Below, piece by piece: positions 2,978 through 34,649 of a stretch of 64,000 nt of DNA (positions are counted from its first letter, which is position 1; every line of letters begins with the position of its first letter). Position numbers and translations under genes: made by a program. Origin of the DNA: Candidatus Poribacteria bacterium. GTDB taxonomy: Bacteria > Poribacteria > WGA-4E > WGA-3G. The stretch spans positions 3,424,001 through 3,488,000 of the forward strand of contig OZ244048.1 of NCBI GenBank assembly GCA_965215265.1, written 5' to 3'. Below the pieces are notes generated by a model that was not told where the DNA came from, did not search any database, and was given only the letters and a program-made list of their open reading frames with translations.

Positions 2978-5900
2978 TTATGAAGGCTGTCCACTCTCAT
3001 CATCAGATTCAGGCATTACCTGATGAGGTAAGCGCTCAATGATTCTGGTTGATTGGACGCTGATGTAAACGATGCGCTCTATGGCTGTTATCAGGTCTCG
3101 TGGATGCTCGAACCAGCCGTTGGCATCGTTGATGATGCCACTCTCCTTGTCCTGCTTGATGCGATACCTGTCTATAAACCACTCCAAGGGGGTTCTGCCG
3201 TTGACCAGGTAACGATGCGCTTCTTCCGGGATACCGGTCAATTGGACGTGTTCGTTGAGCATCAGCGTTGTTTTCTGCGGCTTATCGGCAAATCGCATGG
3301 CCCGGGTGCCGAGCCGAAAATGCTGCGGTTGCGGCACGCCCTGCTGTGCGAAAATAAGTTCCAACGGAATGCGTTCACCCGTCTCGTAACTGAGGTGGAG
3401 TTCGGCGAGTCTGGAGCCCGCTTCCGCGAAGGCGTGGAAATCGGGTGCAAACGGGATGCGTGGTAACATCTTGGACAAATCGTTGGCGAATTGTTCCCGG
3501 TAACTGGGTGCGTGCAGTACACCGTAAACGTAGTCGAAGATGTCGTCTTTGCTGATGGTGTCGTCCCTGTAATGTTCACGGAAGGCAAGTAGTGCGGTGT
3601 CTGAGATATTGTCAATCCGTTTGGGTGAATCGTCAACAGAGAGAAATGAGTCAGACGCGTCTGGTTTATCCGAAGGTTTCGGATATTGCCACCGCGGGAA
3701 GCATTGGCACGCTTCATTAAAGCCGAGATCCGGCAGGGTATCAGTAATAAGCGCGGAAAACGATTTTTTTGAACCGATGCCGGGGACACATATCACTCGG
3801 TTTTCGCTGGAACTGTCTGGGAAAATCTGGTGCATCTGGTACCGCCTCTGTATGAACGTGTAATCTGTGTAACAATTTGTGGCAATGAAAGGTCGGTACA
3901 CAACCTTTTGGATATAACTCTCATTAAATGCGGTTTTTCTCCTCCGCCTTAGGTCGTTCTCAAGATCTGTATTCCACTTAATATTTGTGGCGTAGCGGTT
4001 GACGACCTCCGCTATTGTTAATTCCGGGTTTTCTTCAAGTTTAGAGAGTGCGGCGAGGTAGTCTTGCGTCATCTGTCTTGCATTTTCAGCACATGCCTCG
4101 CGTGAGAAATTATAGATATATGCGTCTCTACTTGTGGCCAAACCTTGCGAATATAACTTAAATATCGCATCGTCTGCTTTTCCTGCTTTTGCCTGCTTTG
4201 TCCCCATCGGATAAAATTTACTAAACGCTTCACTGCGCTGCTCAATCCAATCGTGGTGGGCGTTAGGCGTAATTATCTGCCAATCGTTGAACCCTTTTAT
4301 AGATACTGCCTCGCGGAGTGCATCCAGTTTTTCCTCGCGGGTGAGATAATCGCCGATGTCACGGTAGTGGATGCGGCATCCGTCATGGGAGGCGTTTGGG
4401 TTTTTGACAAGGATTGTAATAGCAACAGGGGCCCGTGAGCCTTGACCGAACACGTTATCTCCTTCAGCACGTCTCCGTTCCCCGGATGTTCTCGCATTCC
4501 CTCGTAGGTTTAGGACGTGGATGGAGCTGAACTCCTCCACTAAACAGGCGCGGATGCCTGCATCGGCGTTTCCGTCAATCCATGAGCCGTTGGTGACGAA
4601 GGCGATAACGCCTTCATCCAGCCTATCAGATGCCCAGCGGATTGCTAACTTGTATGTGTCGTATAGACTGTTTTTTAGTGTTGCGGTAGAACGTTCTGCG
4701 TAAGTCTCTCTGACACGGTTTTCAAGTTCGGGATAATCAATGTTGGGGTTGTCGTCGGCTGCGCTCCGCTGTCCTACGGACCAGGGTGGATTGCCGACGA
4801 TGACCTGGATTGGGAGTTGCTGTTGCCGTTCGGCACGTTCGTTGTTGTCGGGCAGCCACTCCTTCGGGAAAAGGGTGGGAGCTTCTTCCTTGTTCAGGTT
4901 GAACGTATCCGTCAGCACGATGCCCTTAAAGGGTTCGTAGGGGCTGTCTTCTCCGTGCCGGCCACGGAACGCTTCTTCTATATTCACGGCGGCGATGTAG
5001 TAGGCGAGCAGCACGATTTCATTGGCGTGGAGTTCCTCCCGGAACTTGCGCCCCACATCGTCCGGGTGGATAAGCCCAGATTGTAACAGTCGGACGGGAA
5101 AGATGCCGGTGCCCGTAAACGCATCCAGCAGATGCACTCCTTCATCGCTGAGGCATCGGCCAAATTCATCTCGCAACACCTCCTCGGCACTGTGCAGAAT
5201 GAAGTCTACAACTTCAATCGGTGTGTAGACGATACCGAGGCGTTGTGCGTCTTTCTCCAAGGCAGTGGCGAAGAATTTCTCGTAAAGTTCCAACAGAACG
5301 CGTTGTTTGCCTTCGCTGTTGTCTATACCGCGTGCACGGAGTTGGACGCTCTCGTAGAAACGGGCTAAATCGCGTGTTTCGTCCTCCAATCCGAATTCTG
5401 AGAAATCGGCTTGAAGGGCGTTCAGGGCCCTCGAGACAGGGTTGCTGGCGGCGAAGTCGTAATGTTCAAAGAGTGCTTCAAAAACAGGGCGTGTCAAGAT
5501 GTGCTGTGCCATCATCTCTATGGCGTTGCTCCGGGTGATTGAGGCGTTTATTGAACTTTGCAATTCTGTATGGAACGCGTCGAACCATTCACGCAGTGCC
5601 TCATTTTCGAGGGTATTGAGTAAGCCTTCAATTCTTGCGGTGACTCGCAAAAAAATATCGGCGACATCCTTTGCCCAGCTCTCCCAGTATTTTCTGTCTC
5701 CGCAGTTCTCAACGATTTTGGCGCAGATGGCATCGGCGGGAATCTCCAGGGGCAAAAAGAGTTGTTGCGCGTTTAAGGCAGCCGGGGTGTCCGTGCCATC
5801 TCCATCAAGGTTATATCCGGTGAAGATTATCCGAGGGGTGGGGGTGTTGTTGAGGTCTATTCTGTTGATTTCGGCGTTGAGCCTGTCGTCGTGTGAGCGG

Positions 5901-7813
5901 AGGGCGCGGAGAATCTTCCACACTGCGGCGAACCGGTTATTGTCGTTGAGAATATTGGCCGGATCTGCGCCTGCGGGTATTGCCACCGGCAGGATGATGT
6001 AGCCGTACTGCTTGCCGGGCGCTTTACGCATCACACGGCCGACTGCTTGCACGATGTCCACGTGCGAGTTCCTCGGGGCCATGAAGAGCACTGCGTCGAG
6101 GGCGGGGACATCGATGCCTTCGGTGAGACACCGTGCATTTGAGAGAATACGGCAAACCCCGTCAGAATCACCCTTTAACCACTCAATCCGTTTTTTGCGG
6201 GCGAGCGCATTATCTTTTCCATCCACGTGCTCGGTTTCGCACTTAAAGTTGTGCGGGCGGTGCGCGTCCGGCATTCGTTCTATAGCACTCTCTATAACCC
6301 CGTCCCAATGTTTCACAAGGTTCTTTGACGCGGCGATGGTGTTGGTGAAGGCGATGGCACGGGTTAGCGGTTTGATTGCCGCATCGTCAGGGGTTTTTCT
6401 TTCCGGGTTTTGGAGGGCACGCCAGCAGCCTACAATCTTCGTCGCGTCGTTAATGTTAAGGGCGCTGCCACCGGATGTGCGGTATGTCTGCAGCGCTGCA
6501 TCCGCATTAGGTTCGTATATGGAAAGCACGACAACCTTGTAGTCAGAGAGCAGATCTTGTTCGACGGCTCTAGAGAAGGGCAGGTAATGGAATGCTTCGC
6601 CGTAGGTGTCCGCATCGTCCATAGAGAACACTTCAATATCATGGCGTGCGGCTTTTGCCTTCGCGCTTTCGGTATAGAGGCGTGAGGTAGCCGTCATGTA
6701 GAGGCGCTTCTTGGCATGGATTCGGGCGTTGTCGTGTACCAGTATAAAGTGAGAAGTGTCTTCATCTGAGGCTGCGATGCCTGTGGTTCGGTGTGCTTCG
6801 TCGCAAAGGACGATATCAAACGGCGGGGCGGCTGCCGCTTGTGCTTGTTCGACGATGGGGAGTGAATGGTAGGTGCAGAACACGACTTTCATAGTGTCCG
6901 TGTCTCTTTTCTGAAGCGCTTCAGAAATCACATCGGGCGCTGTCGTCACTGGTATTTCCAGCTCCAGGATGGATGCCTCCTCGGTGGTTTTCCCGGCTCG
7001 GGTATCGGAACAGATGCCGATGTAGCGGTGCGGGATGGCCTGTTGTTCTGCCCATTCTCGCATCGCTTGTGAAAAGAGCCCGATGGAGGGCACGAGGTAT
7101 AGCACCCTGCCACCGACACCGGCGATAGCCTCGGCAATGCGGAGCGCCGTGAACGTTTTGCCGGTGCCGCACGCCATCAGGAGTTTGCCACGGTCGGAAT
7201 GTTTGAAGCCGTTGATAACGTCATCAACCGCTTCTTTTTGATGCGGGCGGAGGCTGAACTTTTCTGGTTGAGAGTCGAGTTGTTCGGGCGCTTGCTCGGC
7301 GAGGTCCGGCCAGTTGACGGGGCGGCTGGCGAGCTCGGCGGCACTGAGGCGTTGGCAGGGCGGTTGCAAGCCGTCGAGAGTCCTATAGACGTTGGCACTC
7401 CAGCTGTCGCTGGTGTCAACGAACAGGCGCGCGGTGAAGGGCGCACGACCGGATGCCGAGATAAAGGTGTCCACATCTTGTTTTCTGATACGTGTGTTTT
7501 CAGCGTAACATTTGCACTGGATTGCGCAGTAGCCGCCTTCGCGTTCTTCCGCTACCAGGTCGATGCCGATATCCACCCCATCGAACTCTGGGCGAAGCGC
7601 TGCCCATTCAGCCCAGAGATACACATCGGAAAACCGATTTTTATAGAAGGCATCTTCAAGCAGATAGCGCCGGATTAAACGCTCGAAAAGTCTGCCGACT
7701 CCGTATTGGGTATTCGCATTTTCGCGAATGTAGTGGAGGGCCGTGTAGAAGCCGTTATCTTTTTGTTCGGTTCCGCTTTGTAAGTCTAAGTAGATTTGTG
7801 TGGTTTCTGACAT
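2978..7813 (-). CDS. Type ISP restriction-modification enzyme (LlaGI/LlaBIII-like)
   Basis: Mrr-like nuclease (DIGIDLVA...AIQCK), SF2 helicase (GTGKT, DEAH, QAVGRVMR), adenine MTase (DAFTGTG, NPPW) and a C-terminal target-recognition region in one 1611-aa chain. Confidence 0.92.
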   Translation of the reverse strand: MSETTQIYLDLQSGTEQKDNGFYTALHYIRENANTQYGVGRLFERLIRRYLLEDAFYKNRFSDVYLWAEWAALRPEFDGVDIGIDLVAEEREGGYCAIQCKCYAENTRIRKQDVDTFISASGRAPFTARLFVDTSDSWSANVYRTLDGLQPPCQRLSAAELASRPVNWPDLAEQAPEQLDSQPEKFSLRPHQKEAVDDVINGFKHSDRGKLLMACGTGKTFTALRIAEAIAGVGGRVLYLVPSIGLFSQAMREWAEQQAIPHRYIGICSDTRAGKTTEEASILELEIPVTTAPDVISEALQKRDTDTMKVVFCTYHSLPIVEQAQAAAAPPFDIVLCDEAHRTTGIAASDEDTSHFILVHDNARIHAKKRLYMTATSRLYTESAKAKAARHDIEVFSMDDADTYGEAFHYLPFSRAVEQDLLSDYKVVVLSIYEPNADAALQTYRTSGGSALNINDATKIVGCWRALQNPERKTPDDAAIKPLTRAIAFTNTIAASKNLVKHWDGVIESAIERMPDAHRPHNFKCETEHVDGKDNALARKKRIEWLKGDSDGVCRILSNARCLTEGIDVPALDAVLFMAPRNSHVDIVQAVGRVMRKAPGKQYGYIILPVAIPAGADPANILNDNNRFAAVWKILRALRSHDDRLNAEINRIDLNNTPTPRIIFTGYNLDGDGTDTPAALNAQQLFLPLEIPADAICAKIVENCGDRKYWESWAKDVADIFLRVTARIEGLLNTLENEALREWFDAFHTELQSSINASITRSNAIEMMAQHILTRPVFEALFEHYDFAASNPVSRALNALQADFSEFGLEDETRDLARFYESVQLRARGIDNSEGKQRVLLELYEKFFATALEKDAQRLGIVYTPIEVVDFILHSAEEVLRDEFGRCLSDEGVHLLDAFTGTGIFPVRLLQSGLIHPDDVGRKFREELHANEIVLLAYYIAAVNIEEAFRGRHGEDSPYEPFKGIVLTDTFNLNKEEAPTLFPKEWLPDNNERAERQQQLPIQVIVGNPPWSVGQRSAADDNPNIDYPELENRVRETYAERSTATLKNSLYDTYKLAIRWASDRLDEGVIAFVTNGSWIDGNADAGIRACLVEEFSSIHVLNLRGNARTSGERRRAEGDNVFGQGSRAPVAITILVKNPNASHDGCRIHYRDIGDYLTREEKLDALREAVSIKGFNDWQIITPNAHHDWIEQRSEAFSKFYPMGTKQAKAGKADDAIFKLYSQGLATSRDAYIYNFSREACAENARQMTQDYLAALSKLEENPELTIAEVVNRYATNIKWNTDLENDLRRRRKTAFNESYIQKVVYRPFIATNCYTDYTFIQRRYQMHQIFPDSSSENRVICVPGIGSKKSFSALITDTLPDLGFNEACQCFPRWQYPKPSDKPDASDSFLSVDDSPKRIDNISDTALLAFREHYRDDTISKDDIFDYVYGVLHAPSYREQFANDLSKMLPRIPFAPDFHAFAEAGSRLAELHLSYETGERIPLELIFAQQGVPQPQHFRLGTRAMRFADKPQKTTLMLNEHVQLTGIPEEAHRYLVNGRTPLEWFIDRYRIKQDKESGIINDANGWFEHPRDLITAIERIVYISVQSTRIIERLPHQVMPESDDESGQPS

Positions 7814-7961
7814 ATTAGTTCTTTTCAGCTCCTTTGCGAACGGGGATGTAGGGTCTTCGGAAGGATTGTTGTTGTGGTGCTTGGCGTGTCAGGGTGCCGT
7901 TCTGGAGGTGAGGGATATCTGGAATCAGCGGCGGCGGCGCTAGTGGCAGCGCTGCGAGCAG

Positions 7962-8003
7962 AAAAAAAGCCTGCCCTGTGCTTGAGGGTGCCAGTGGGCA
8001 GGC
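7962..8003 (-). terminator. Intrinsic terminator in the leader of the type ISP gene
   Basis: Minus strand GCCTGCCC-19 nt-GGGCAGGC followed by T7, about 150 nt upstream of ATG 7813. Confidence 0.7.
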
Positions 8004-8053
8004 GTGCAGTCGAGTGAAAGTGAAGTTGAGGCGAGCTGGTGATGCGCGAGAAC

Positions 8054-8227
8054 TTAACAGATATAAGGGGGGGGGTAAATCGTTCTTTTTGCTGACGGAC
8101 CCGGCAGATGGCAGTTATCGGCGGCAGTCGTAATACGCGTGAATCTCGATTGAGTGCTTGCGTGCAACGGCAGCGCGGTATTGAGAGAGAGGACAGATTT
8201 TACTGAAGTGCTAAGAGTTATATGCAT
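8054..8227 (-). CDS. Putative 57-aa leader ORF ending in a C9 tract (…TIYPPPYIC*)
   Basis: Open from ATG 8227 to TAA 8056-8054; C9 at 8075-8067. The SD is weak, so translation is unproven. Confidence 0.5.
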   Translation of the reverse strand: MHITLSTSVKSVLSLNTALPLHASTQSRFTRITTAADNCHLPGPSAKRTIYPPPYIC

Positions 8228-8453
8228 GAGCGTTATGGTTACCCGCGAGGTTGGAAACCCTTATCTGTCGAGGCAGGGGGTGTTTCCTAACTTGCGAGTT
8301 GAAAGATCTATTTATTTTTAGAATCAACTATATAGCGAACATCTGGTTTTTCAGACGTTCAGATAAAACTCGGTTTGATTAAGACTAGCGGTTTGAAACC
8401 GGGTGAACCAGAAACATTGTCTCAGCAATATTTTCAGAGAGCTGTGCGTGACA

Positions 8454-9629
8454 TTAAGGGGACAGAGTTGGCAACTCTGGTATTTCCATCCATCGTCGGT
8501 TTTTCCAAGACTCCCATCCCTTTTCTGCTAACTGAACGCCTTTGGCGCCGGCAAGAAGTGTCCAGGGGAACGGTTCATCAGCGACGACATGTCTGAGGAA
8601 GAGTTTCCACTGTGCCTTGAAGGCGTTTTCGTAGGTTTCCTGTTCTGGTACCTTGAGCCATCCATCAAAGAATTGGATAGGTTGTTCGATGTCAGGATTC
8701 CAGACGGGACGTGGGGTTGCAGAGAGAGGCTGGATGCAGCAATCGCGTAATCCAGCAACAGCAGAGCCGTTCAATCCGTCTACGTGTATTGTCAAGAGAT
8801 CGTCGCGTCGTACTCGGACTGCCCAAGAGGAGTTAAAATGAGCGATGATGTCACCTTCTAATTCAAAAGTCGAGTATGCGGCATCTTCGGCTGTACATCG
8901 GTATGGTTTGCCTTCTTCGTCCCAGCGTTGCGTAAAATGTGTCGCTGCAATGCAGGAGACACCTTTGACTTCGCCGAAAAGGTTGTCCAGTACGTATCGC
9001 CAGTGGCTAAACATATCGAGTATAATTCCACCGCCGTCTTCAGCCCGATAGTTCCATGAGGGCCGTTGTGTCGGGATTAGATCACCTTGGAAAACCCAAT
9101 AGCCGAATTCACCTCGGACGGCAATAATTTTCCCGAAAAAATCAGCGTCAATGAGACGTTTCAGTTTTTGGATGCCGGGTAACCAGAGTTTATCCTGAAC
9201 GACTCCGTTTTTGAGTCCGGCGTTTGTTGCCTGTTGGTATAGGCGATACGCATCTTCAGTCGTGGTGGCGGTTGGTTTTTCACAGTAGATGTGTTTGCCG
9301 GCGGAGATTGCGGATTGAACCGCCTTGACACGCTGTGACGTGACTTGCGCGTCAAAATAGACAGAATAACCGTCATCGGCGAGGACAGCATCCAAATCAG
9401 TACTCCATTTTTCAACACCTGTAGTCTGGGATAGTTTCTCTAGTTTGGCTGGGTTTCTACCGACGAGGATAGGTTCAGGCATAATCACTTTTCCTTCCTC
9501 AAGTAGAATGCCGCCTTCTTCAGCGATTGCTAAGATGGAACGGATGAGATGTTGGTTGGTGCCCATTCTTCCGGTGACACCGTTCATGATGATGCCGATA
9601 CGTTGTACTTCTTTGATCTGATTCGTCAT
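8454..9629 (-). CDS. Gfo/Idh/MocA family oxidoreductase
   Basis: IIMNGVTGRMG Rossmann start, HIYCEKP. Confidence 0.88.
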   Translation of the reverse strand: MTNQIKEVQRIGIIMNGVTGRMGTNQHLIRSILAIAEEGGILLEEGKVIMPEPILVGRNPAKLEKLSQTTGVEKWSTDLDAVLADDGYSVYFDAQVTSQRVKAVQSAISAGKHIYCEKPTATTTEDAYRLYQQATNAGLKNGVVQDKLWLPGIQKLKRLIDADFFGKIIAVRGEFGYWVFQGDLIPTQRPSWNYRAEDGGGIILDMFSHWRYVLDNLFGEVKGVSCIAATHFTQRWDEEGKPYRCTAEDAAYSTFELEGDIIAHFNSSWAVRVRRDDLLTIHVDGLNGSAVAGLRDCCIQPLSATPRPVWNPDIEQPIQFFDGWLKVPEQETYENAFKAQWKLFLRHVVADEPFPWTLLAGAKGVQLAEKGWESWKNRRWMEIPELPTLSP

Positions 9630-32167: not shown

Positions 32168-34649
32168 TTATTTTGACAGCGGCGAGATATCCGACACTTG
32201 CGTATCACTGAGATCCAACTTTTTCAAGTTGGTGAGGTTTGACAGAGGTGTGATATTCTCTACTGGCGTACCCGAGAGAGACAGCTCTAGCAAGCTGGTG
32301 AGGCTTGACAGTGCCGAGATATCCGACACTGGCGTACCCGAGAGAGACAGCTCTAGCAAACTCGTGAGGCTTGACAGTGCCGAGATATTCTCTACTGGCG
32401 TACCCGAGAGAGACAGCTCTAGCAAGCTGGTGAGGTTTGACAGGGCTGAGATATCCAACACTTCCGTATCACTGAGATCCAACTCTTCCAAGTTGGTGGC
32501 GTATTCAAGTCCAGTCAGATCGCTAATGTCTGAGCCACCTACATCAAGCTCTGTCAAGAGGAGTATATCTCTCTGGAAAACATCCATATCATCGGCGATG
32601 TCGAGTTTCTTCTTGATTCCCGTAAGGAGCGTCTCATCCGGAATGTTCACCACCGGCGAACCCGCAAAACCTACCACTGTCAAGTTGGTGAGGCTTGACA
32701 GTGCTGAGATATCCGACACTGGCGTACCCGTGATATCCAGCGTTTGCAAGTTGGTGAGGCTTGACAGTGCCGAGATATCCGACACTGGCGTATTAGTGAT
32801 ATCCAGCGTTTGCAAGTTGGTGAGGCTTGACAGTGCCGAGATATTCGACACTTGCGTATCACTGATATCCAGCGTTTGCAAGTTGATGAGGCTTGACAGT
32901 GCCGAGATATCCGACACTTGCGTATCACTGATATTCAGCGTTTGCAAGTTGGTGAGTCTTGATAGGGCTGAGATATTCGACACTTGCGTTCCCGTGATAT
33001 TCAGCGTTTGCAAGTTGGTGAGTCTTGATAGGGCTGAGATATTCGACACTTGCGTTCCCGTGATATCCAGCGTTGTCAAGTTGATGAGGCTTGACAGTGC
33101 CGAGATATTCGACACTTGCGTACCCGAGAGATCCAGCGTTTGCAAGTTGGTTGCGTGTTCAAGTCCAGTCAGATCGCTAACGTCTGAGCCACTTAAATCG
33201 AGACTTGTCAAGCCTAGTATATTTGCCGAGGTGACAGCCGTCCCCGCGGCGATGTTGAGTGTCTCCTTGATTTCCGCAAGGAGCGCCGCATCCGGAATGT
33301 TCAAATCGACGACTGTATTTACAGGCACTGTCAGCGTATTCGAGGCCTTGCTCAGGTTGCCCACTATGTCCATTGTGGCATTCTCTGGCACCGTTATTTC
33401 CACATTTCCGTCAAAACCCGACGGCGGCGTGATAGTCGCTCTGTAGACTTTGAAGGCGGAACTATGTTTCACCCTCCCGCTATCATCTACATTCGGACTA
33501 TTAAAACCGGGATCCCGATGGTCTAAGCCGATTAACATCGGGGCTGAAACCTGCCAATCAGCCGCGGTGGAGCCCAGTGTCATCACTGTGCCATCTACCG
33601 TGAGCGTGATGTCCGTCGCCTCGAAGCCTCGCGTGGTATCTGCAATCACACCATCATCGTCACTTCCAACCCCATAATTGTAGAATAGGAATTCCACATT
33701 AAAGGGCGCTGTCTGAGTGTCAGTTTCGGTAACAGCCGCATCGGGTGCTGTCGTTGAAAAATCCACATAGTCGGTGCGGTAACCCGTGCTAACATCATGA
33801 GTCTCAGCCTTGATCAGCCCGGGAATCCTCACATTCGCCCGGATAGTATCTATGAGATACTTAAGACCGTCATGAATAGAAGGCTCCTGCAGCGGAGGCA
33901 TCCGGCCATAAAAGACCCGCGAAAGCTTCTGTGTGTAGTCTGCATTACCCGTAGTTTTCCACTTATGATCATCGGGGGTGGTATTGACGGGGTTCGCGAC
34001 GTCCTCGCCATTATCTATGATGAAATTATTTGCATCGTCAACATAGGGATTGCTACTATGAACTATAACAACGCCATCGCCGAAAACGTCATCGCCGTCT
34101 TGCACCTCGTATTTGAAATATACGACTTTATTAGAGGCTCGCGCAGCGGTCCTTGCTGAATCATAGACGGCACGTAGTGTAGTGCCACCGGGGTCATCCT
34201 CACCGTCCATCCGTAGCTCCAGGGCCGGCAGATCGGACGTTCCATCGTTCTCGACTTTGACATCTATACTAAATGTTAACTCAAAAACGATTTCATCTGT
34301 ACTACTGAAAAATTTAACCGCTTGGCCCGTGGTGGGGTTGGAGTACCCCGGGGCAGTAAGAATGTTTGATGTATGGTTTGCTACTAGATCCGTCCTAAAA
34401 TTTCCACCCTGCTCCCAATTTGCAATTAAATATGCCCTGCTGTACGCATAGAGCGAATCGCCTGTATGTGTACCTTCACTCACTATCTCAACCTTCTCTA
34501 ACGTCGGTTTCGCTGCCTGCACGGTAGCCATCGGTGCGGCTAACATCGCAACCCCGGCTATCGAAATTACAGATGAGATAAATCTGACACTCAACACGGA
34601 AATAAAATACTTAACATATAGAAGGGGGGGGGTGCATTCTTCTCTTCAT
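32168..34649 (-). CDS. Secreted internalin-type LRR protein; the 5' end is out of frame at a C9 tract
   Basis: 22-aa repeats LQTLDIxxTxVSDISALSSLTN in two blocks, each after an NIPD cap. AAGGAG-led ATG 34649 is in frame with ORF 32168-34597 only if C9 (34632-34624) is C8 or C11. Confidence 0.85.
32175..33150. repeat. 66-bp tandem repeats encoding LRRs (two blocks)
   Basis: Recurring GAGGCTTGACAGTGCCGAGATAT with 66-nt period. Confidence 0.9.

Follow-up and report, generated by a model that had tools for sequence, protein, structure and literature searches.

A cytosine run as a candidate reading-frame switch in the leader of a type ISP restriction-modification gene from a poribacterial sponge symbiont

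The stretch of DNA analysed here (referred to as the window) comprises 64,000 nucleotides (nt) from the genome of a Candidatus Poribacteria bacterium, which is available as a single contig of 4.83 Mb (G000). It carries an intact gene for a type ISP restriction-modification (R-M) enzyme of 1611 residues (2978-7813), preceded by a leader in which a run of nine cytosines (C9) lies within a short upstream open reading frame (uORF). From the sequence evidence, the chances that this run switches the R-M gene, through a leader that depends on the uORF, appear to us evenly balanced: at C9 the uORF stops just behind the run, whereas the loss or gain of a single C would lead its frame to the very start of the R-M gene, and the same frame pattern is found in the leaders of all five type ISP paralogs of this genome. 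As far as sequence comparison can tell, this anatomy is repeated too precisely for base composition alone to account for it. All coordinates are positions in the window, and the locus is read on the minus strand throughout.

The uORF (8054-8227) starts with the ATG at 8227-8225 and consists of 57 codons and a stop codon, with the run being read as Tyr-Pro-Pro-Pro. The run itself forms part of a module (8052-8079) composed of TTTA (8079-8076), the nine C (8075-8067), TTATATCT (8066-8059) and GTTAAGT (8058-8052), and the stop codon of the uORF is the TAA at 8056-8054, inside GTTAAGT and 51 nt before a hairpin resembling an intrinsic terminator. Between the run and the ATG of the ISP gene lies a spacer of 253 nt (7814-8066), in which the two frames not used at C9 are free of stop codons until the TGA at 7827-7825 and the TAA at 7817-7815. 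When one C is removed in silico, the uORF frame extends to this TGA (133 codons), 12 nt 5' of the ISP ATG, and when one C is added it extends to this TAA (137 codons), which sits one base 5' of the ISP ATG at 7813 (TAA-N1-ATG). Both shifted frames cross the hairpin and the run of seven U (U7) that follows it in this copy (copy A), and all four stop triplets inside the spacer belong to the C9 frame. With stops this close to the ISP start, both shifted frames have the geometry of translational coupling. The initial annotation of this locus had described the leader ATG at 8227, the stop at 8054 about 50 nt before the hairpin, the two shifted frames running through the terminator to the gene start and the stops of the unshifted frame; all of this was verified, the C8 and C10 frames in silico.

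The same annotation had cautioned that a GC-rich sequence makes long open frames less improbable. The spacer is in fact C-rich and G-poor, not simply GC-rich (C 37.5%, G 17.8%). In 231 of 5000 dinucleotide-preserving shuffles of the copy A spacer, two or more frames ran free of stops as far as the last 16 nt before the ATG. Against chance, the single locus gives modest support (about 5% or less); it is the recurrence of the pattern in further leaders that lifts it above chance.

The enzyme itself is a type ISP R-M enzyme, with nuclease, helicase, coupler, methyltransferase and specificity domain in one polypeptide (Pfam matches to Mrr_cat_2, 1.3e-36; ResIII, 2.4e-21; ISP_coupler, 1.8e-41; and Type_ISP_C, 2.6e-94; Helicase_C was also matched, and the matches to N6_Mtase/Eco57I were weaker). 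As a protein it shows no difference from known type ISP enzymes; the genome, however, holds five intact paralogs of 1606-1612 residues, four of them located outside the copy described above by blastn. According to their leaders, these paralogs fall into two classes, with A (the copy in the window) and B near-identical and C, D and E forming the second class. Within a class the proteins are near-identical over the nuclease-helicase part, and differences lie mainly in alignment columns 1000-1400. As a separate observation, ISP A (2978-7813) and ISP C (G000:905435 onward) are 100% identical over about 100 residues (columns 800-899), with neighbouring windows of the alignment being 43-80% identical, a block of identity that suggests gene conversion between paralogs.

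All five ISP leaders carry the run in the context AACGATTTA-C8/9-TTA..GTTAAGTTC, and in every one of them the run ends exactly 253 nt before the ATG (the length is C8 in ISP E and C9 in C and D). Over the spacer, the two classes align hardly better than random sequences: the gapped identity between A/B and C/D/E is 56% (shuffles 51.8 +/- 1.7%, maximum 56.4%), and the ungapped identity is 75 of 253, with a clear signal only at a 6-nt offset (107 matches). Despite this near-random alignment, all six internal stops of C/D/E are in the C9 frame and frames 0 and 2 are open in both leader classes, so that the preservation of both open frames in homologous leaders, which the initial annotation had proposed as a check, is indeed found in the second class. 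Frame 0 ends in stop-N1-ATG in both classes (TAA in A/B, TGA in C/D/E), whereas the end of frame 2 is 12 nt short of the ATG in A/B and forms an ATGA overlap in C/D/E. The uORF ATG lies 152 or 134 nt upstream of the run, depending on the class, and the run is read alike in both (..TIYPPP), with an immediate stop at C9; in paralog E, which has C8, the uORF continues to the ATGA overlap. At least two open frames were obtained in 228 of 5000 shuffles for B, 161 of 5000 for C, 295 of 5000 for D and 268 of 5000 for E.

The design is also found before other genes. The genome contains 100 C/G runs of at least 8, which group into 48 sequence clusters. At cluster 32, a uORF stops at the TAA of GTTAAG at C9 and one frame is open to a TGA-N1-ATG at the next gene, whose product we take to be DUF1156-like from a reading of its N-terminus, made without a scan. 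Cluster 2 comprises nine copies 5' of a family of FlgD_ig proteins; their leader is homologous, from run through terminator, to that of ISP A/B, and four of these copies have an open frame of 128-443 nt ending in an ATGA overlap with the gene. In a genome from another genus (G004), secreted-protein genes of one family are preceded by uORFs that, at C9, terminate at GT-TAA-G; one or two of the remaining frames are free of stops for 413-424 nt, as far as the Shine-Dalgarno region of the gene, and a copy with C8 has a uORF of 195 codons.

The hairpin and U7 of copy A (7962-8003) have the form of an intrinsic terminator, an 8-bp G+C stem with further inner pairs (GCCTGCCC..GGGCAGGC, 8003-7969) followed by seven T (7968-7962). 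Folded alone the hairpin has -20.0 kcal/mol, and it is present in the minimum free energy (MFE) and centroid structures of longer folds. A scan with a simple terminator rule, restricted to loops of 3-8, passed over it on account of its longer loop. A homologous module of hairpin and U7, of higher stability (-25.8 to -28.1 kcal/mol), is found in seven cluster-2 leaders, and there the same 3' arm pairs with a 5' partner different from that of ISP A/B, which argues that hairpin formation has been retained. No hairpin followed by a U-run was found in the ISP leaders C, D and E (three of the five), so that masking of the hairpin cannot be the general mechanism, and the terminator is one non-universal part of the switch. 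As regards a second type of termination, the prerequisites of Rho-dependent polarity are present, namely a long C-rich and G-poor leader RNA (35-49% C and 12-23% G in 80-nt windows) and a rho gene (Rho_RNA_bind, 96.2 bits, in a frame of 443 residues), with the action of Rho itself being predicted.

At both ends of the leader, further signals can be recognized. Upstream of the uORF lies a sigma-70-like site, CTGAAA-N16-TATAGT (8327-8354; 9 of 12 consensus positions in a consensus scan, and a consensus match only), whose equivalent in copy B is TTGACA-N17-TACAAT (11 of 12), and in class C the same type of scan gave two promoter-like sites 5' of the uORF. Between the promoter-like site and the uORF, copies A and B have in common an inverted repeat, GTTAGGAAAC..GGTTTCCAAC (8250-8291), and units resembling GTTAGGAAAC are repeated in a relative (L008), 5' of an ISP gene. 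At the downstream end, the Shine-Dalgarno sequence of the ISP gene (AAGGAG, 7834-7829) has a predicted pairing partner in UCCUU (7865-7861), and that of class C in GCUCC; MFE and centroid structures agree on this in either case. Searches for already known elements gave no candidates: Pfam, at E up to 1, has no family for the uORF or either long frame, leaving a hidden protein gene in these frames without support, and Rfam covariance models gave no matches over 7600-8700 on both strands (E up to 1).

Taken together, the best reading of these data, which we hold with a confidence equally divided between acceptance and rejection, is a uORF frame switch acting through antitermination and/or anti-polarity together with translational coupling. 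Transcription would start 5' of the uORF. At C9, the uORF would end at the TAA in GTTAAGT, 51 nt before the terminator, leaving the C-rich and G-poor leader untranslated; most transcripts would then end at the hairpin and U7 or through Rho-type polarity, and the ribosome-binding site of the ISP gene, predicted to be paired, would stay closed. A shift by one base, whether from heritable slippage of the DNA to C10 or C8 or, possibly, from slippage of RNA polymerase or of the ribosome on the run, would bring ribosomes into one of the two frames open for about 80 codons. Both frames would cross the terminator and finish at the ISP start (TAA-N1-ATG, or 12 nt before the ATG), and the translating ribosome would suppress termination and then, through coupling, promote initiation at the ISP start. 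The elements that we infer are uORF translation, transcript ends at 7962, coupling, the ON and OFF states and a useful rate of run-length change.

The steps of this putative mechanism have counterparts in well-known systems. An extract of PMC4824070 describes the repression of a terminator by a ribosome that translates through it, and likewise that of terminators situated just behind or inside a translated frame; for pyrL, the consulted portion of PMC5021804 states that a ribosome closely following on the leader ORF prevents the hairpin, with the downstream genes being transcribed; and gating of Rho termination by uORF translation is described in an excerpt of PMC12360218. The likeness to E. 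coli pyrBI (with pyrL) lies in a leader ORF that crosses an intrinsic terminator, and copy A has both elements, a leader ORF 3' of a promoter-like site and a terminator crossed by the shifted frames. In pyrBI, however, the signal is the closeness of ribosome and RNA polymerase, whereas here the frame would be set by the C-run, there are two long frames, and three of the five ISP leaders are free of the hairpin. In tnaC and mgtL/mgtP, as far as the available excerpts go, translation of a short uORF likewise decides on termination by Rho or structure before the gene, and the mgtP leader uses consecutive proline codons (from parts of PMC12360218 and PMC5021804); these systems respond to a metabolite or to the translational state, and no repeat tract sets their frame. 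A heritable and stochastic change of leader DNA decides termination before the operon in E. coli fim and C. difficile flgB (in an excerpt of PMC12360218), by recombinase-driven inversion instead of a homopolymer, and with no uORF frame.

The remaining point of the proposal, namely whether the run can change in length, is best approached from the whole set of runs. A C9 is long enough for slipped-strand mispairing, for which about 8 or more G/C are needed, and, judged by its sequence company, the run belongs to a set that is typical of contingency loci. The numbers of C/G runs in the genome (36+30 of length 7, 20+24 of length 8, 27+19 of length 9, 1+3 of length 10 and 6 of length 11) fall to 66 at length 7 and climb again at 8-9. 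Among the 19 run-associated ORFs scanned, 14 are genes for DNA methyltransferases or R-M enzymes, and the other five encode a leucine-rich repeat (LRR) protein, a FlgD_ig protein, ComEC, a DUF4007 protein and an ABC-2 permease. Pairs of paralogs with flanks at least 97% identical differ in run length in 5 of 15 cases and have an indel in the flank in 1 of 15; in one pair, 300-nt flanks that are 100% identical surround C8 in one copy and C9 in the other.

Two side observations concern this set of runs. The window contains a second one (34624-34632, a C9 of the minus strand) in a gene for an LRR protein, one of a family of 13 copies whose signal peptide is lipoprotein-like; it lies 13 nt after AAGGAG-N9-ATG, and the LRR paralogs vary in run length (C7-C9) and in frame. 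Furthermore, methyltransferase genes that bear runs often occur as tandem pairs in the same orientation, about 1.8-4 kb apart (in G000 at 224762/226577, 1195626/1197434, 1292291/1294312, 3023040/3024929, 3122558/3124524 and 3698672/3702599).

Several findings weigh against the frame switch, and we present them here together with the alternative explanations on which they bear. A first group concerns the run itself. No difference in run length and no indel at 8067-8075 was found in the contigs of four sequencing runs, all of which have C9 (contigs hide minority variants); these contigs showed no joints and no pile-ups of starts or ends at the locus. A listing of 19 sequencing runs named no RNA run that contains the stretch. 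MutS and MutL are present. The runs inside R-M genes follow an out-of-frame rule. The sequence around 51 of the 100 runs is open for 80 codons or more in both directions; 13 of these runs are in frame and 38 out of frame, and in the R-M paralog clusters (1, 3, 4, 5, 6, 10, 12, 17, 26 and 42) not one intragenic run is in frame. All the runs of these clusters would be in frame at C10, and no copy has C10 or C7; a +1 change is needed by 22 of 27 C9 runs, and a +2/-1 change by 12 of 22 C8 runs. A general assembly error at homopolymers is contradicted by the controls, since A/T runs of at least 8 are in frame in 100 of 113 cases, C/G runs of 7 in 42 of 42 and C/G runs of 6 in 291 of 303, and an assembly error specific to C/G runs of at least 8 keeps some small probability as the cause of the out-of-frame runs. 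Applied to the ISP leaders and to cluster 32, the +1 rule of the R-M runs likewise leads to the stop-N1-ATG frame. Simple stochastic ON/OFF switching does not predict such a universal out-of-frame state, which may mean either that the majority genotype is OFF everywhere or that the runs are decoded by slippage of the ribosome or of RNA polymerase.

Because all the runs of the R-M paralogs are out of frame, slippage of ribosome or RNA polymerase stays a rival to switching of the DNA. In its full form, this alternative states that the run is not a heritable switch and acts instead either by -1/+1 ribosomal frameshifting or RNA-polymerase slippage, with a fixed or regulated share of the ribosomes entering the long frames, or by a stall at Pro-Pro-Pro (involving elongation factor P, EF-P, and prolyl-tRNA) whose strength tunes coupling to the downstream terminator or Rho site; we regard it as unlikely. 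It would account for R-M runs that would all be in frame at C10, for the selection of the stop-N1-ATG frame by the +1 rule and for contigs that all read C9, with the controls speaking against assembly error, and the conserved flank beside the run resembles a slippage stimulator. According to an excerpt of PMC5021804, termination in E. coli without EF-P is influenced by polyproline motifs that lie 5' of the pyrL terminator or of rut (Rho utilization) sites. Against it stand the near-identical pairs, 5 of 15 of which differ in run length, so that the DNA does change, and the fact that the C8 and C9 copies would require opposite slips. The flank is, moreover, antisense to about half of the genes, which is unlike a single stimulator at the RNA level, and efficient slippage on C-runs is not established here.

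A second group of findings concerns the signals around the uORF. The initial annotation had noted a weak Shine-Dalgarno sequence in the leader, and indeed no clear one can be recognized for the uORF or for most of the sister uORFs. The folds of the ISP Shine-Dalgarno region have z-scores of -0.68, -0.87 and -1.25, not significantly more stable than shuffles. A sigma-70-like site (CTGACA-N16-AACAAT, 7865-7892, 9 of 12 consensus positions) lies between the terminator and the ISP start, in both A and B, 52 nt 5' of the ATG; it is a possible leader-independent promoter and, for these two copies, a live objection. A promoter downstream of the hairpin was what the initial annotation itself had named as speaking against its proposal; such a promoter-like site is present in A/B, as a consensus match only, and between the run and the ATG of class C the scan listed none. 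The module is also missing from ISP genes elsewhere, at 0 of 17 loci of other genomes and, in a wider screen, at 0 of 79 loci (the region screened being the true upstream region in 67 of the 79). Finally, shuffle tests of the leaders before other genes gave 69, 123 and 98 of 3000 for long frames and 575, 724 and 404 of 3000 for short ones, and since the pattern was already known when these examples were collected, the individual shuffle values cannot simply be multiplied.

A further explanation, which we consider quite improbable, takes the run module as a passenger, a repeated leader fragment that exerts no control on the ISP gene, with the gene being transcribed from CTGACA-N16-AACAAT and the open frames following from a C-rich and stop-poor composition. 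It gains from the position of that site, which resembles promoter-like sequences seen by eye 5' of the ISP genes of relatives, from single-locus shuffle values of about 5% (13-24% for several of the other examples), from a uORF lacking a Shine-Dalgarno sequence and from ISP genes of other genomes that manage without the module. It does not explain why the two leader classes share the 253-nt length and the frame-specific stops in spite of their close-to-random alignment, nor why frames end exactly at the start codon in ISP A-E, at cluster 32 and in four cluster-2 copies, and for class C the scan gave it no promoter-like site between run and ATG. A contig from a diverged strain also speaks against it: 24 substitutions fall within 7500-8302 (9 in each flank) and none within the core, 7932-8127. 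In this strain the uORF is intact, with 7 of 58 residues changed, frame 0 is kept and the stop of frame 2 moves from 239 to 227; this retention of the frames is not discriminating, since 3183 of 5000 random sets of nine substitutions also keep both frames.

With regard to the frame switch, the idea of the initial annotation, an attenuator controlled by the reading frame, is supported in part: by comparison only, it gains from a frame pattern that recurs in the second ISP class, before unrelated genes and in another genus, and it loses from the terminator that is absent in three ISP leaders, from the constant run length in the contigs, from the uORF lacking a Shine-Dalgarno sequence and from the promoter-like site below the terminator.

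A third group of findings concerns the flank of the runs. The flank TTTA-Cn-TT..GTTAAGT is found in 20 of the 48 clusters, with GTTAAG at most 30 nt 3' of the run (background 0.004 per window), whereas the controls gave 1 of 48 for GTTAAG 5' of the run, and 0 of 48 and 1 of 48 for its reverse complement 3' and 5' of the run, respectively. In the flank clusters, TA precedes and TT follows the run, and the distance from run to GTTAAG is 6-17 nt; among the ISP leaders, the distance to GTTAAGT is 6 nt longer in C/D/E than in A/B. The orientation of GTTAAGT is fixed relative to the C strand but not to the genes (of the intragenic runs, 25 are sense and 26 antisense), and this too counts against the frame switch. 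No replication bias of the C strand was found (50 vs 50; the skew curve is not a clean V). A role of GTTAAGT merely as supplier of a stop codon was rejected, since the third frame stops there in 5 of 20 clusters and the motif is also found antisense to genes. Just 3' of the run, the sequence is in many cases complementary to a portion of GTTAAGT (C-TTA..TAA-G; TTAACT..AGTTAA in ISP C/D/E; ACTTA..TAAGT in relatives), and a short hairpin may abut the run.

Intergenic phase-variable runs can act in promoters. In another explanation of the present run, it lies in the spacer of a promoter TTTACC-N17-(TG)TAAGTT (17 nt at C9), and its length tunes either a short leader or small RNA ending at U7 or the ISP transcript. 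By eye, TTTACC matches 4 of 6 positions, the 17-nt spacer ends in TGT and TAAGTT has A2 and T6; cluster-2 copies, with homology to ISP A/B spanning run to terminator, read TTGACC-N16-TATATT or similar. This explanation appears to us very improbable, given that the consensus scan did not list the site, that the spacing is 23 nt in C/D/E and the run-to-GTTAAG distance 6-17 nt across clusters, that the module is also found inside ORFs and antisense to genes, that copy B has a near-consensus promoter 5' of the uORF and that the frame pattern and the 253-nt length are left unexplained. Hexamers at a spacing of 16-18 nt around the run, as in a phase-variable promoter, were not found as a general feature; the by-eye match fits A/B only.

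A last possibility, which we regard as unlikely, is that TTTA-Cn-TT..GTTAAGT is a dedicated and lineage-conserved module acted on by a specific process, such as programmed slippage by ribosome or RNA polymerase, or a motif-guided factor that changes the length of the run. About 40 R-M genes would, in this case, be kept one or two bases short of their in-frame length, and the module placed in the uORF would be a remote switch for enzymes such as the five ISP paralogs, whose coding sequences are free of runs. Across the phylum, 33 of 176 genomes contain TAC8+-N5-16-GTTAAGT (the reversed-pattern control gave 0 of 176), mostly in one family (29 of 111), one genus of which has it in 0 of 40.

Some further observations were made in the relatives. 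In a same-genus genome (G001; L006, L020, L066 and L069), ISP starts that lack the C-run module have trinucleotide repeats 46-69 nt 5' of them, (TCA/CAT)13 in one copy and (ATC)5 in another. C-runs 5' of an ISP gene in L060 were rejected as instances of the module, since they belong to a different palindromic repeat, and L065 was rejected as a close strain, its match being of 72% identity over 215 bases only. Two scans of metagenome contigs with leader flanks of the A/B type and of the C/D/E type, leaving a free gap for the run, gave no matches in either case.

Among known phase-variable systems, the runs resemble the simple sequence repeat (SSR) loci of Neisseria, Haemophilus, Helicobacter and Campylobacter, where, in the literature excerpts available (among them a C. 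jejuni Ribo-seq preprint), G/C homopolymers of about 8-11 in genes for R-M enzymes or surface proteins set ON or OFF by frame. Those runs, in the same excerpts, lie inside the regulated gene or are intergenic, whereas here the run is in a separate uORF, 253 nt upstream; what also sets the present runs apart from the SSR loci compared is their shared conserved flank, GTTAAGT, and their host, an uncultured sponge symbiont. In N. meningitidis siaD, slippage of a poly-C tract reportedly causes an early stop of translation, which lowers the downstream transcript through Rho, with the tract being, unlike here, inside the regulated gene itself. Our literature searches found no published description of a combined switch of repeat tract and uORF attenuator, and, on Poribacteria and phase variation, nothing beyond incidental mention.

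If the frame switch is true, it would join phase variation by repeat tracts with leader-peptide attenuation and translational coupling, and the R-M gene would be controlled from 253 nt away, with no mutable run in its coding sequence. It would also be a first indication that uncultured sponge symbionts of the Poribacteria operate contingency loci in large number (some 100 runs, mostly in R-M genes), which would bear on phage defence and gene flow in a dense host-associated community. The GTTAAGT flank and the uniform out-of-frame rule could point to an undescribed mechanism of decoding or of mutation and, if the module is a dedicated one, a sponge symbiont could vary which part of its very extensive set of restriction enzymes is expressed.

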